Shown in pieces: positions 54,631-60,029 of a DNA stretch of 64,000 nucleotides. Position 1 is the stretch's first letter. Every line of letters starts with the position of its first letter. The notes beneath the pieces are model-generated. The model was not told the origin of the DNA. It ran no database searches and saw nothing but the letters and a program-made list of their open reading frames with translations. Source of the stretch: Escherichia phage 121Q; sequence record NC_025447.1, one strand, 5' to 3'. The translations under genes and the position numbers were made by a program.

Positions 54631-54643
54631 TATGATATTATAG

Positions 54644-54671
54644 GGACTTGAGTATTCAAGTCCTTTTTTTT
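54644..54671 (+). terminator. rho-independent terminator
   Basis: GGACTTGA...TCAAGTCC stem plus eight T. Confidence 0.65.
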
Positions 54672-54682
54672 GGAGAAAATAA

Positions 54683-55039
54683 ATGAAATCTAAAATCTTT
54701 TTACCGCAGTTAATGTGGCATCTGGCAGAGTTAGATGAAGATGATGAATATACTGACTATGGTACATGGGATGACAGTACTGAATCATTCAATCCAGATG
54801 TTAAGTACAAAATCATTAGTAATGAAAGTAAAGGGCATAGACGATGGACAGAAGAATTTGATCTAGTTTTTCTTGACATGAACACGAACAAATATTATCA
54901 TTGTACGTATGAACGAGGTTTAACAGAAGATAGACCAGCAGAACCATTCAGAAATGAAACTGATGGTGTTAAGTGCTATGAAGTTTCTGTTACCAGAGAA
55001 GAAATTATCACTTATCGAACTTTGTGGAAATACTTGTAA
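54683..55039 (+). CDS. hypothetical protein
   Basis: RBS GGAG. Confidence 0.45.
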   Translation: MKSKIFLPQLMWHLAELDEDDEYTDYGTWDDSTESFNPDVKYKIISNESKGHRRWTEEFDLVFLDMNTNKYYHCTYERGLTEDRPAEPFRNETDGVKCYEVSVTREEIITYRTLWKYL

Positions 55040-55437
55040 TGCTAAAAGAATTAGATTTTTCAAACTTAGAAATCATCAGTGCTGTTAAAAATATCTCTGA
55101 CTTTGGAGATGAGAAGTCAGTACTGGTAACTGTTACATTCGTCAAAGAACAGGATAGCTATAGCCATTTAGATGGTATTGAAGAACTAATTCACAAGACT
55201 AATCTACAAAACGATGGTAAACTCATTAAGCTTCAGGCTTCCTATACGCAAAAATCGTCATTTTTTGTAGACCTAAATAATGTAGTCAAGGTGGTATACA
55301 ATCACCCTGAACACAAATACAGGAACACGACAAGAAACGAGAATGATGCTATAGACTCCAATATCAAAGAGGATGTCGAATTCATCAACACAATTTTTGA
55401 TCGTTGTTCCAAGGATTTGAAAAAGGTATACATGTAA
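55039..55437 (+). CDS. hypothetical protein
   Basis: ATG overlapping previous stop. Confidence 0.4.
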   Translation: MLKELDFSNLEIISAVKNISDFGDEKSVLVTVTFVKEQDSYSHLDGIEELIHKTNLQNDGKLIKLQASYTQKSSFFVDLNNVVKVVYNHPEHKYRNTTRNENDAIDSNIKEDVEFINTIFDRCSKDLKKVYM

Positions 55438-55438
55438 C

Positions 55439-55466
55439 GGGACATAACACATCCTAGTGATATAAT
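55439..55466 (+). promoter_or_regulatory. sigma70-like promoter (GGGACA, 16 nt, TATAAT) upstream of repeat copy B
   Basis: read from sequence. Confidence 0.35.
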
Positions 55467-55523
55467 GTATATTGTAAAATGACAACGGACATTGAAAAAT
55501 GGATAATGAGAACCTACTTCTCT

Positions 55524-56041
55524 TGAAAATGTAAAGGATAGATGAGCTTTACCGTTGTAGCGAACAGCAAAAGAAACCTGTTAGAGTACTGGCATTCAAA
55601 CAAACACGATGTAAGACCACGAATCACGGCGACACGGCTGTATAAAGAACTCCGATAAGCATACAGAGAGTTCCTAGATAGATGTATAAGGTTCGCACCT
55701 TACCAGATTTGCTAAGGGAGTTTAAGAATAGCGGACGCAATTTTACAAGAAAGTTGCGTCCAAAATTTGAGAACAGGTACTACTTTGATCGAATAGAGTT
55801 AGTACTGAGTGCTGTTGATGAAAAGACCAGCGACCGTTGCATATGACTGCGATAGAGAGAAACCGAGCAACCCGCTTTCGCTCTCTAAATTTTGGTACAA
55901 GAAAGATCCGTCCAAAATTTGAGAAATTCGCAATTCGATAATATCCGATGCCATCATCGTCAAGAGAGACTTAATTGTCTCTTTTTTATTACCTTCATTC
56001 CCCTGCGGGGGGATGTAATAGTCCTCAACAAATCCCGTCAA
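55524..56041 (+). ncRNA. candidate large structured noncoding RNA, copy B of the two-copy element
   Basis: same conserved blocks as 856-1310 in the same order; extra insertions; intergenic. Confidence 0.5.
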
Positions 56042-56127
56042 GTTTTTAAAGTACATTATCATTTTCAGAAGGAACTAGTTTACGAAGTAAACGCAGTGAC
56101 TTCTTGAGTTACGAGAGAACGAAGTGA

Positions 56128-56556
56128 ATGAGTAACACAACGAAAATATCCGATAAATCCGAATTAACACAAATGTTATTCAAAGAATATTTTGAGTTTC
56201 AGATAAAAGACGAACAACAATTACCACAGCAATATTTGAAAAGAATTAAAGATCCGTCAGTAATTACTAAAGAAACTAATTTTTATAATAGTATTTTGGA
56301 TTTCGTTAAATCAGTTCATACAACAAGACCTATTGTAGTTTTGTTTTTTGATAAATCTATTCCTTTAGTAGTTCCTGAAAATGTATTTTTTATTTCAGAA
56401 ACTGATTTAAATAATCAAAGTACTGTAAGTAGATTAAGAAATTGCTTACTTGTAGTATGTGATTCTTCTTTGTATAATAACAGAATACTATGGGATAGAA
56501 GTAAACGCAATGCAGTTTCGGAAATGAATCCTGAAATTACCTTTATTATTAACTAA
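56128..56556 (+). CDS. hypothetical protein
   Basis: ORF in track. Confidence 0.45.
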   Translation: MSNTTKISDKSELTQMLFKEYFEFQIKDEQQLPQQYLKRIKDPSVITKETNFYNSILDFVKSVHTTRPIVVLFFDKSIPLVVPENVFFISETDLNNQSTVSRLRNCLLVVCDSSLYNNRILWDRSKRNAVSEMNPEITFIIN

Positions 56557-56588
56557 ATAATAAGAGAATAACTCTAAGGAGAGATATT

Positions 56589-57029
56589 ATGGAAGATATT
56601 AATGATTTACGACACGTAATGGACTTTATCGGAAGTACTGAAGAAGATAATTCATATGATGAAGTACTATTAACTTTTATTGAAAATAGTTTGTTTTTAA
56701 GTTCTGCTGCACATAACTGGCACTTACAATGTCATTTTTATACAAAGCATTTACAATTAGATGAACTATATAAAGAATTACCAGAATATGTAGACGCATT
56801 TGTTGAAGGTATCATGAATAATCGTGGTGCTTTGCAAGTTGGGACTGGTAATAGTTATCGTTTTACACCAATTGAAGATTGTGTACCAATTCTTGAAGAA
56901 TATGTTGAGCAATGCAGAGCAATTCATGATATGCTTGAAGAATCGGGTGATTACGGCAGTGTAAACACATTAGAAGATATTATGAGTTTTGTTGAAGGAA
57001 CACTTTACAAACTTAAAGTTTTACAATAA
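56589..57029 (+). CDS. hypothetical protein, possibly ferritin/Dps-like four-helix bundle
   Basis: AAHNWHLQCHF..H..LDELY loosely resembles the Dps AHWN...F...H..LD motif; weak. Confidence 0.3.
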   Translation: MEDINDLRHVMDFIGSTEEDNSYDEVLLTFIENSLFLSSAAHNWHLQCHFYTKHLQLDELYKELPEYVDAFVEGIMNNRGALQVGTGNSYRFTPIEDCVPILEEYVEQCRAIHDMLEESGDYGSVNTLEDIMSFVEGTLYKLKVLQ

Positions 57030-57036
57030 ACTATAT

Positions 57037-57066
57037 GGAGAGTCGCTATGACTCTCCTTTTCTTTT
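57037..57066 (+). terminator. rho-independent terminator
   Basis: GGAGAGT...ACTCTCC stem plus T-run. Confidence 0.6.
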
Positions 57067-57077
57067 GGAGAAATAAT

Positions 57078-57710
57078 ATGAAATCGCATGAGTTAGCAAA
57101 ATTACTACTATCTCAACCAAATCTAGAAATTTATCATTATGATGCAGAGAGTGACTTGCATTATCAGAATTTTGATAATAAATTAATGGTTACACCATCT
57201 GGTATTTTCACAACGGTAAAACCTACATCAGTTTCTGAAAATGTACTTACACCATACGAAACCCCCCTCTTGGGTCATGTGCAAATTTTCTTTAAGGATG
57301 GTACTATTACTCCAAAATTGGAGGGTTCACATATTCAAACTGTTCTTAGCTTAGAATATGGGTTGGTATTTAACATTCCTTATGAAAAGCCAATTGTTTT
57401 ATTAGGTAAAAATCAATCAACACAATTCTCTAATCAACATACTGTTTGTTATACATCTGATGATATTGATTTCATTTCAGTACTGACAGAATATGATCCT
57501 AATACTTGGCACGAAACATGGAAAACTATGTCATATGATGAAGCAATTGAATGTGGTAAAAATTTAGCCAAAATGTTATTTTCACCGAAAAAAGAACTTT
57601 CACAAGAACAAAATGAATCATTTTCTAAAGATTTTCCTGATTCTGAATTCAATGTTAAAGTATCAACTACCAAAATTGGTGAATTTCTAAATGAAAATCA
57701 AAAAGATTAA
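57078..57710 (+). CDS. hypothetical protein, paralog of the 58080 ORF
   Basis: RBS GGAG; N-terminus MKSHELAKLLLSQPNLEIYH resembles MKAKDLAALLMQNPEMEVYH. Confidence 0.5.
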   Translation: MKSHELAKLLLSQPNLEIYHYDAESDLHYQNFDNKLMVTPSGIFTTVKPTSVSENVLTPYETPLLGHVQIFFKDGTITPKLEGSHIQTVLSLEYGLVFNIPYEKPIVLLGKNQSTQFSNQHTVCYTSDDIDFISVLTEYDPNTWHETWKTMSYDEAIECGKNLAKMLFSPKKELSQEQNESFSKDFPDSEFNVKVSTTKIGEFLNENQKD

Positions 57711-58083
57711 ATTCCACCAGCATTGTTCTATACATGTCTGTGATGATTGTGGTATACAAATGAGTGATATTTATACAGTTTCCTGTAAAGGTTTCAAATT
57801 CACTCATGGTGAACCTGCTTACTGTTATGGTACAGAAGAAGGTGATATCGAGATAGTACTGAAAGAATTGTTCCAGTACTTGCAAAGTGTCGGTCATGAT
57901 GTTACAATACCCACATATTATGAAGATGATTATGATGCACATGTAGAAGAAAATACATATTATAATCAATTCGTTTATGGTAATGGTTTTATCACATACC
58001 TACATGAGAATGGTATTGAGGTAAAAACTAAGTACACCAGTGATGATTATGATGATGATAATTCTATGGAGATTGAAGATTGA
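57691..58083 (+). CDS. hypothetical protein with Cys-rich N-terminus
   Basis: ORF in track. Confidence 0.45.
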   Translation: MKIKKIKFHQHCSIHVCDDCGIQMSDIYTVSCKGFKFTHGEPAYCYGTEEGDIEIVLKELFQYLQSVGHDVTIPTYYEDDYDAHVEENTYYNQFVYGNGFITYLHENGIEVKTKYTSDDYDDDNSMEIED

Positions 58084-58664
58084 AAGCAAAAGACTTGGCA
58101 GCACTGTTGATGCAGAATCCTGAAATGGAAGTGTATCATGAGCACATGCACATTGATGACATGTGTGACGCTTACTATTCACCAGAAAATGTGTCTGGTA
58201 TTGAAATCACCCCTAGTGGAGTATTCATCAGTACTGAACGTATTGATTTGAATTCCCAGCAAGAAATCAAAACTCCACATAATAAACCTCGCATTGGTGC
58301 TATTGACCTAGTATTTCATCAGGACCGTTTGGTGGAATATGATGAAGACGATGGTACTACCCAAACTGATGTTGAGAATGTTGTTTTTCGTTTTTATAAT
58401 GCATACGAAGACCCAACTACTGGAGAAGATTTCTTCCGTGAGCTATTAGAGGATGGGGAAGTTTATGGTCAGGATGGTACGGTTTTTGTACTAGACCCTA
58501 ACTATGAGCCAGATCACAATACATGGCAATTCTATACACCAGAAGATGTAATGGAAGTTAAAGTACTTATGGATATTGACGATAAATGGAATCCTATGTA
58601 TACTTCAATGACATATGAAGAAGCCAAAGAATACTTCGTTTCTAAACTAAACATTACAAAATAA
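58080..58664 (+). CDS. hypothetical protein, paralog of the 57078 ORF (TTG start)
   Basis: ORF in track. Confidence 0.45.
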   Translation: MKAKDLAALLMQNPEMEVYHEHMHIDDMCDAYYSPENVSGIEITPSGVFISTERIDLNSQQEIKTPHNKPRIGAIDLVFHQDRLVEYDEDDGTTQTDVENVVFRFYNAYEDPTTGEDFFRELLEDGEVYGQDGTVFVLDPNYEPDHNTWQFYTPEDVMEVKVLMDIDDKWNPMYTSMTYEEAKEYFVSKLNITK

Positions 58665-58681
58665 TAAGGATTCACAAATTT

Positions 58682-58963
58682 ATGAAAATTGTTGCAAGTG
58701 CATGGATGAAACTACCAGATGGTACAACTGCTTTTGAAGAATATGGCTTTGTTGAAAGTGTAGATGAATTAAAGCGTTTCAAAAGTGAAAATGATGATGA
58801 TGTGTTTGATATTGTATTTGTATATCATCATATTCCTAATGATACTGATTATGAACATTATTATTATCATCCTGATTTGTTGGAAACACTTGTATGCGAC
58901 AACTATCATGAAATTGATGAAAATACAGCTTTACTAATGTTGAGTACCGTATCTCCGGTATAA
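58682..58963 (+). CDS. hypothetical small protein
   Basis: ORF in track. Confidence 0.45.
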   Translation: MKIVASAWMKLPDGTTAFEEYGFVESVDELKRFKSENDDDVFDIVFVYHHIPNDTDYEHYYYHPDLLETLVCDNYHEIDENTALLMLSTVSPV

Positions 58964-58971
58964 GGAGTAAT

Positions 58972-59451
58972 ATGTATAATCTTATAATTATCCGCGAACC
59001 ATATGAATCTGACAACAGTTCAACTGATGGTGAGGTTTTAGTATATCAAAGTTATGAACAAAGTGGCATTGAACATGAATTAAAAGATTATTTACGTCAA
59101 CATATATATCTATATCGTTCAAAACCACATGAACAGTATGGCGATATAATGTTTATCGTAACTCATAATGGTGCAGTAATTGAACATGTAAATATGACAA
59201 ATAACATGTATTTTCATAATTACACTGACACGTCTAAAGAATTAGGAAACGATTTCAATGCTGTTTACAATGCATTGCGTATCAATTTTTTTAAAAATGA
59301 CAAATTCTGTACTGATATTAGATTAGAAGAAGCAAATACAAAAAAGAAACTTTCTCGAAAATACGAGAGTGATAGAAAAAAAGAACAAGAGATTCAGCGT
59401 TTACACGAATTGATGAAAAAATACCCTAATGAGGTACAACATGGCTCTTAG
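58972..59451 (+). CDS. hypothetical protein
   Basis: RBS AAGGAG. Confidence 0.5.
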   Translation: MYNLIIIREPYESDNSSTDGEVLVYQSYEQSGIEHELKDYLRQHIYLYRSKPHEQYGDIMFIVTHNGAVIEHVNMTNNMYFHNYTDTSKELGNDFNAVYNALRINFFKNDKFCTDIRLEEANTKKKLSRKYESDRKKEQEIQRLHELMKKYPNEVQHGS

Positions 59452-59779
59452 AGGTTCAAATCAATATAAATGTATTGCAGAGATCAGGAAGAAAGATGGA
59501 ACACTTGTAGACCGAACATTAAAGGAAGAATATAAAGAACTACGTGATGTGGTGCATAATGATAGTTATGGCGGGATGCGTCGTCAAAAAATTTATGAAT
59601 ATCTAAAGAAAGGTTTAGAAATTCAGGTTAATGGTCTTCATTGTATTCAAACAAAAAATGATCCTGATATTCTACGTTTGTTGAAAGAAGATAAGATTGA
59701 AATGTTTAATGTTCCTATTTCATTCTATGGTAATAAACTAAAATGTAAGCATACTTTCTTGAGGATTAAAAATGGTTGA
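59441..59779 (+). CDS. hypothetical basic protein
   Basis: ATG with RBS GAGG. Confidence 0.45.
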   Translation: MALRGSNQYKCIAEIRKKDGTLVDRTLKEEYKELRDVVHNDSYGGMRRQKIYEYLKKGLEIQVNGLHCIQTKNDPDILRLLKEDKIEMFNVPISFYGNKLKCKHTFLRIKNG

Positions 59780-60002: not shown

Positions 60003-60029
60003 TTGACCTCACTATGTGGGGTCTTTTTT
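60003..60029 (+). terminator. rho-independent terminator
   Basis: GACC(T)C...G(G)GGTC stem plus TTTTTT. Confidence 0.5.

Follow-up and report, generated by a model that had tools for sequence, protein, structure and literature searches.

Two ancient subtypes of a RaK2-like jumbo phage protein family in a variable gene slot of Escherichia phage 121Q, downstream of a candidate structured RNA

Escherichia phage 121Q (sequence record NC_025447.1) encodes two distantly similar acidic proteins on either side of a third, within the 64,000-nucleotide stretch that we analyzed (hereafter the window). Gene A (57078-57710) encodes 210 amino acids with an isoelectric point (pI) of 4.9, and gene B (58080-58664) encodes 194 amino acids with a pI of 4.2. 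The middle gene, M (57691-58083), encodes 130 amino acids with a pI of 4.5 and an acidic C-terminus, and overlaps A by 20 nucleotides (nt) and B by 4 nt. All three lie on the plus strand. We find that A and B belong to an ancient family, PHROG 18200, that is specific to one group of phages and comprises two subtypes, A-type and B-type, housed in a cassette-like variable locus; B is more widespread than A. A separate RNA-like element lies about 1 kb upstream of A.

The original prediction, made from the letters of the window alone, proposed that A and B are paralogs and named likeness limited to the first 20 residues as the outcome that would speak against it. Both open reading frames (ORFs) lie where it placed them, and their starts are supported. 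GGAG stands 6-7 nt upstream of the ATG of A, and an alternative upstream ATG at 57048 sits within a hairpin loop, so 57078 is the correct start. B begins with TTG, and the tetranucleotide TTGA holds both this start and the TGA stop of M. The TTG start is right because the resulting N-terminus (MKAKDLAALL) aligns residue for residue with that of ATG-started homologues.

Paralogy is true over the full length of both proteins. BLASTP aligns ~185 residues of A and B with 24% identity and 46% positives (E = 6e-11), reaching a C-terminal W...M(S/T)Y(D/E)EA block, and the blocks MK..ELA.LL…P, TPSG.F, P…P.IG and VLT…W……M[TS][FY].EA are each found in both. Both also match the phrog_18200 profile from end to end, A with residues 1-171 on profile positions 1-191 of 191 (E 4.8e-75) and B with residues 1-194 on positions 1-188 (E 1.2e-91). 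We considered whether the resemblance could instead be chance, low complexity or a conserved 5' translation-initiation sequence, given that identity is strongest in the first 20 residues and that the same motif heads unrelated short proteins. However, shuffle tests over the full length gave z = 17; the value was still 9.2 once the first 25 residues were removed, and the C-terminal ~55 residues taken by themselves gave 7.6. Moreover, the shared N-terminal motif is written in different codons in A and in B, and its conservation is therefore at the protein level. Together with the end-to-end profile matches, these results already refute this explanation, to which we attach next to no probability. 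A search of the window for a third copy of the family found none.

The family is confined to RaK2-like jumbo phages. Exhaustive profile searching with HMMER across 1.84 billion representative proteins returned 29 matches at E <= 1e-3, 27 of them at <= 1e-10; 28 were 101-205 amino acids long and the remaining one was a 37-residue fragment. Word-indexed searches recovered close relatives only. Among 50,697 phage genomes searched with tblastn, 50 records carry a B-like gene and 32 an A-like gene, all of them jumbo phages of Escherichia, Klebsiella, Salmonella or Erwinia; close orthologues number 34 phage records for B and 23 for A. Members are single-domain proteins of ~170-215 amino acids whose cluster always stands beside a Dps/ferritin-like gene (DUF5856, similar to T4 rI.-1) near tk. 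When we compared 56500-59500 with phage records, 34 matched, and the top matches were Escherichia phages SHEFM2K, slurp01, G17, Sharanji and PBECO4 (97-98.6% identity), ~350-kb Asteriusvirus/RaK2-like jumbo phages. The window has a G+C content of 31-36%, and nearly all long ORFs at 55-61 kb are on the plus strand.

A and B had been read as the product of local, recent duplication and divergence. The phylogeny does not bear this out. In a neighbour-joining tree of 46 family sequences, one clade unites A with PBECO4 gp054, copy 1 of Hallingskeid, the upstream copies of 7t3 and Kae01, a partial copy of EJP2 and sequences P0016-P0021. The other unites B with the RaK2 gene (ORF017), copy 2 of Hallingskeid, copies 2 and 3 of EJP2 and the downstream copies of 7t3 and Kae01. 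Each subtype has its own N-terminal signature, 'MKSHELAKLLL…FFKDGTITP' for A-type and 'MKAKELAxLLLQxPDxEVY' for B-type. Both subtypes are present in Erwinia phage Hallingskeid, Salmonella phage 7t3, Klebsiella phage fENko-Kae01, EJP2 and metagenomic contigs, and in these distant genera they are usually adjacent: an A-type gene directly adjoins a following B-type gene in Hallingskeid, EJP2 and two metagenomic contigs, L012 and L009, the genes of the latter overlapping by 4 nt. Two clades and tandem A-B pairs in several genera indicate that the duplication is old, and the tandem arrangement is likely the ancestral layout. The A-type copy of fENko-Kae01 (L008, 698-1326) is split by a frameshift, and may be a pseudogene or a sequencing error.

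Tandem duplication has been described as a route of genome expansion in jumbo phages (Hua et al., as cited in the phAPEC6 paper, PMC7247149). The A/B pair resembles such tandem paralog arrays in that diverged copies lie side by side in RaK2-like genomes and vary from 1 to 3 between relatives. It differs in three respects: the duplication predates the divergence of several genera, the copies form two stable subtypes, and in this phage they are no longer adjacent.

The gene order around the pair differs between lineages. The window reads Dps-like gene, A, M, B. PBECO4, SHEFM2K and phAPEC6 read Dps-like, A, gp053 (PHROG 10749), M, B, whereas CRJP21 and about 8 others read Dps-like, gp053, M, B and lack A. 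RaK2 reads Dps-like, M, B, with M overlapping B, and 7t3 and fENko-Kae01 read A-type, …, Dps-like, …, gp053-like, B-type. None of the database records matched the gene order of the window. Its junction at 57669-57710 (plus strand), where the 3' end of A joins both the start of M and sequence that ends gp053 in relatives, occurred in 0 of 31 matching phage records. Every full-length blastn match splits into two overlapping pieces that span 3352 base pairs (bp) in the relative vs 3001 bp in the query, and the window thus lacks 351 bp that hold the gp053 homologue. gp053 is a second intervening gene, carried by every database relative that has gene A. Matches to A in tblastn end at residue 200, and its last ~10 residues (…FLNENQKD before the stop) are the C-terminus of gp053 in relatives (…FLNxNQKD), where they overlap the start of M. 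The predicted layout of a pair flanking a Cys-containing ORF therefore exists in this phage, but it is lineage-specific and due to the absent second intervening gene.

Two further ideas about gp053 were rejected. Its simple, clean deletion at perfect direct repeats is at odds with the junction, which is only patchily similar to the 3' ends of A and gp053 in PBECO4 and SHEFM2K. Visual inspection had also hinted at kinship between gp053 (…LMARLIEAVPEDD…ITYDGALIYS…) and the N-terminal domain of A and B, for which hhalign returned a probability of 0.2% and an E of 0.37.

The slot has conserved edges. On the left (57037-57085, plus strand) a terminator-like hairpin is followed by the GGAG ribosome-binding site (RBS) and the start of A; the hairpin (57037-57057) reads GGAGAGTC-gctat-GACTCTCC and then a T-run, with a stem of 9 bp that includes 5 GC pairs. 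The same hairpin and RBS precede A in PBECO4 and the gp053-like gene in CRJP21, and the right edge is the start region of M. These conserved boundaries, a hairpin-RBS cassette at one end and the start of M at the other, explain cassette-like gain and loss of the genes between them. The left edge is repeated in the window, at 54642-54690 and 57037-57085 (repeat families D2 and D8): both copies consist of a G+C-rich hairpin and T-run and then TTTGGAGAAA(A)TAA(T)ATGAAATC, which supplies RBS and start codon. The cassette may act as a recombination boundary for gene cassettes in the region. A further hairpin lies at 60005-60023.

The Dps-like gene (56589-57029, plus strand) is the syntenic anchor of the cluster: all relatives examined have it next to the family, and its sequence is unrelated to A and B. 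T4 rI.-1 has a proposed role in lysis inhibition (as quoted in a passage of PMC3622015), a role that cannot be transferred to A or B.

Conservation within the family is sparse. Only L9, P44, P65 and W169 are invariant in an alignment of 31 sequences; the N-terminal M-K…L-A…P, the T, G and F of TPSG.F, and P69 are near-invariant. The C-terminal VLT…W……M[TS][FY].EA consensus is more loosely kept, and the Ser of TPSG is replaced by D, G, A, T or N among members. The same alignment has no invariant His, Cys, Asp, Glu or Lys, which argues against a conventional enzyme. Database comparisons gave no functional lead: A, M, B and gp053 matched nothing above threshold in Pfam and zero families at E <= 1 in PADLOC and NCBIfam, and the family profile met only noise among PDB sequences, the best match (E 0.016) being an unrelated nitrous-oxide reductase. 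The candidates DUF3051 and DUF3195 were rejected for B, with 12.6 and 12.5 bits against Pfam gathering thresholds of 27 and 25; DUF3051 reached E <= 0.1 in 1 of the 31 members. A and B share the length class and phage group of PHROG 18200 and match its whole 191-position profile, and because this group has no assigned function, membership is mechanistically uninformative. Literature searches for these genes turned up no description.

Structure prediction yielded a confident alpha/beta model of B. AlphaFold2 with a 13-sequence alignment gave a mean predicted local distance difference test score (pLDDT) of 64.8, and Foldseek searches with that model were uninformative; a 31-sequence alignment raised pLDDT to 88.4, with a predicted template modelling score (pTM) of 0.76. 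In this model an N-terminal helix (2-11) precedes long beta-hairpins (18-53 and 73-101), a central helix (114-124), more strands and a C-terminal helix (178-189). Foldseek found no PDB neighbour at E <= 0.001 or a template modelling (TM) score >= 0.5 (best E 0.079, TM <= 0.2), so that the model has no neighbour among the solved structures of the PDB. The BFVD matches at E <= 0.001 were limited to six proteins, 20-96% identical, that we take as members of the family; they include RaK2 H6X3H4 and a 205-residue entry at 22% identity, which has the length of A-type orthologues. Several local matches of ~60 residues to small phage proteins (probability 0.5-1.0, E > 0.05) may, judging by their length, correspond to the N-terminal module.

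That module recurs outside the family. A profile of residues 1-56, searched against 5.8 billion sequences, recovered a handful of proteins of 55-81 amino acids that start with MKSHELAKLLLSLPD.EVY and then diverge wholly. Their near-identical ~20-residue N-terminus, a helix plus strand, is that of A-type paralogs; the rest is unrelated and much shorter, and lacks the TPSG, P…P.IG and W…M[TS][FY].EA blocks. This pattern suggests that the N-terminal motif is a portable interaction module. The short proteins (P0045-P0049) are encoded among small ORFs of other large phage contigs (L016-L018, including 156-kb and 20-kb contigs), at 4001-4198, next to HNH and DUF2828 genes.

Both A and B are under purifying selection. 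Pairwise ratios of nonsynonymous to synonymous substitution rates (dN/dS) against PBECO4, SHEFM2K and CRJP21, which rest on small substitution counts and on few for A, ranged from 0.42 to 0.78 for A (0.42 against PBECO4), with lower values for B (0.12-0.29) and M (0.06-0.13). No ratio reaches 1, and constraint is weakest on A, which fits its patchy distribution. One side observation concerns a C6 run inside A (57262-57267): a Logan assembly version (P0037) is near-identical up to the run and then frameshifted into the ORF at 57241-57354, through a sequencing error or because the site is prone to slippage.

We next consider where the proteins act. A and B could be virion, assembly or DNA-packaging accessory proteins, a reading for which the beta-rich model of B can be cited, as can the adjoining Dps-like protein, whose phAPEC6 counterpart gp306c was detected in virion mass spectrometry (MS) with 65.8% coverage. 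The same study lists 62 virion proteins, and the orthologues of B, M and gp053 (gp302c-304c) are not among them. A-type copies are moreover dispensable in many phages, and we regard a virion role as improbable. For A, however, absence from the virion is weak evidence: its ORF is intact in phAPEC6 (L014, MK817115.1, 415-1062) but annotated merely as a 168-nt coding sequence (gp305c), and A could therefore not have been identified in the published search. A literature search for a transcriptome of this phage group found none.

Our tentative preference, held with well under even confidence, is that these two acidic proteins have a binding role inside the cell, as opposed to an enzymatic or virion one; they may work as an A/B pair in which B is the core component and A an accessory. 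Soluble, strongly acidic and outside the virion, they would bind another macromolecule, of host or phage, rather than catalyse a reaction. Docking would fall to the conserved N-terminal helix-strand module, and specificity to the variable middle. The A-type and B-type proteins would have separate targets or else assemble into a hetero-oligomer, and B, joined by M in this lineage, would form the core to which A is an accessory copy.

Several observations weigh against this proposal. Besides the limited force of the virion data, a hetero-oligomer is harder to reconcile with phages that have B alone (CRJP21 and RaK2), with the frameshifted A-type gene of fENko-Kae01 and with the copies in EJP2, two B-type and one partial A-type. 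In the window, M separates A from B, and the two are not directly coupled. Nor does the lack of conserved polar residues exclude a non-canonical enzyme. A bolder version is a long shot: the fold would be unlike solved structures, an A/B hetero-oligomer formed through the N-terminal docking module would capture a host hub protein or nucleic acid during takeover, and unrelated short proteins in other large phages would have adopted this module as a portable targeting peptide.

The middle gene raises a different possibility. It was described as Cys-rich, and it does encode 130 amino acids with Cys, but the term is overstated: there are 5 Cys, of which three are conserved in RaK2 and Serratia phage BF, in the motifs C-[DE]-D-C-G and A-Y-C-Y-G, along with one upstream His. 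These residues (H11, C17, C20 and C45) are kept in the window, PBECO4, RaK2 and BF, and a Zn site formed by three Cys and a His is plausible from this pattern. M (PHROG 9509) is restricted to Asteriusvirus, Alcyoneusvirus and, more weakly, Eneladusvirus. Two candidate domains were rejected for M, the UvsW N-terminal domain (PF21241; 15.0 bits vs a gathering threshold of 25.3, E 0.034) and the 2Fe-2S domain Fer2_3 (PF13085; 15.7 bits vs 27), the latter also because three Cys are conserved across genera where the cluster takes four ligands. Comparison of M with PDB sequences gave noise only. The M-like gene of BF (L015, 2477-3004) has an in-frame stop between CxxC and YCYG, and may be a pseudogene or a sequencing error.

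Accordingly, one could take translationally coupled M and B to be the functional unit of this lineage, a putatively Zn-binding CxxC protein with its B-type partner, and A to be a redundant, decaying spare without a role. The overlap of the M stop with the B start is shared by the window, PBECO4 and CRJP21, and M and B also overlap in RaK2. Both are more tightly constrained than A, which is absent from RaK2 and about a third of Asteriusvirus records and frameshifted in fENko-Kae01 and one metagenomic assembly. Yet six clusters that keep A-type and B-type genes lack M (Hallingskeid, EJP2, 7t3, Kae01, L009 and L012), and the 5.2-kb stretch around the M-like gene of BF contains no family member, so M is not an obligate partner. 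A-type genes, for their part, are kept across distant genera with dN/dS below 1. We consider an M-B unit with a roleless A rather unlikely.

Of similarly low probability is an anti-defence or host-takeover role, in which A and B would be inhibitors, for instance by acidic mimicry directed at a host nuclease or regulator, with the subtypes hitting different host factors. This corresponds to the host-interaction function raised in the original prediction; neither homology, fold matches nor publications speak for or against that function or the early region it mentions. The small acidic proteins, their restriction to one phage group and a hypervariable, cassette-like locus with presence/absence and copy-number variation all speak for it. 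A further point in its favour is that, in T4, both tk and rI belong to the early or delayed-early class. On the other hand, neither PADLOC nor known families show any likeness, the model has no fold match to known inhibitors in PDB or BFVD, and orthologues are fairly conserved across host genera, unlike the fast arms-race pattern of many anti-defence genes. Anti-defence and the M-B unit are close rivals of our preferred reading of A and B as binding proteins.

For the gene pair the stakes are modest. Our analysis adds two ancient subtypes, tandem ancestry, a variable slot and a structural model to a catalogued but uncharacterised family. If a host-takeover or anti-defence role were true, A and B would be factors specific to RaK2-like jumbo phages, several of which have been proposed for therapy.

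The RNA-like element upstream could matter more than the paralogs, as it is supported by covariation, present in multiple copies, preceded by its own conserved promoter and absent from Rfam. Copy 1 (55429-56076, plus strand) is ~600 nt long with a structured core at about 55482-56038. Copy 2 (736-1328, plus strand) lies between ORFs 124-744 and 1348-1968 and is 77% identical to copy 1 (nhmmer E 9e-77). Around copy 1, the ORF-free interval 55440-56128 has 40% G+C vs about 32% nearby and a folding z of -4.2. A sigma-70-like promoter with a conserved extended -10 precedes the element, and its alignment across genera is far better than that of the flanking protein genes. Searches with blastn located 258 element sites in 70 phage records, at 4-5 per genome, all in RaK2-like phages.

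Covariation supports a conserved fold. RNAalifold on 13 diverse copies returned 64 pairs, 37 of which show compensatory double changes. In this alignment 97.1% of cells are paired, compared with 40-50% when partners are slid by 1-3 columns, and two-sided change drops from 37 pairs to 7-10 in the slid controls; 0 of 500 shuffles reach any of these measures. A motif scan of IMG/VR added 47 element copies. Alignment of 41 non-redundant copies gave 96 pairs spanning 55482-56038, 92% canonical and 57 with compensatory changes. The element had no match in Rfam 15 even at E <= 10, a transfer RNA scan and a tandem-repeat search of 55300-56300 were negative, and we found no description of it in the literature searched.

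On this comparative evidence, the element is a candidate for a new class of large structured RNA present in all genera of RaK2-like jumbo phages. To our knowledge, large structured RNAs of unknown function are rare. It may be a stable structured RNA, a transcript resembling a replication primer, or something else. In five lineages the A-type gene begins 70-100 nt downstream of the element. Elsewhere, copies of the element adjoin unrelated genes and in some cases run antisense to these, which points to synteny rather than a functional link between the element and the paralogs.

Copy 1 also contains a 30-nt direct repeat, TACAAGAAAGWTSCGTCCAAAATTTGAGAA, at 55744-55773 and 55896-55925 (93% identical); a partial third copy of the repeat lies at 56248-56265. 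Copy 2 lacks both this repeat unit and the internal hairpin and T-run of the 55-kb copy. Across copies of the element, the number of 30-nt units varies from none to one or two.

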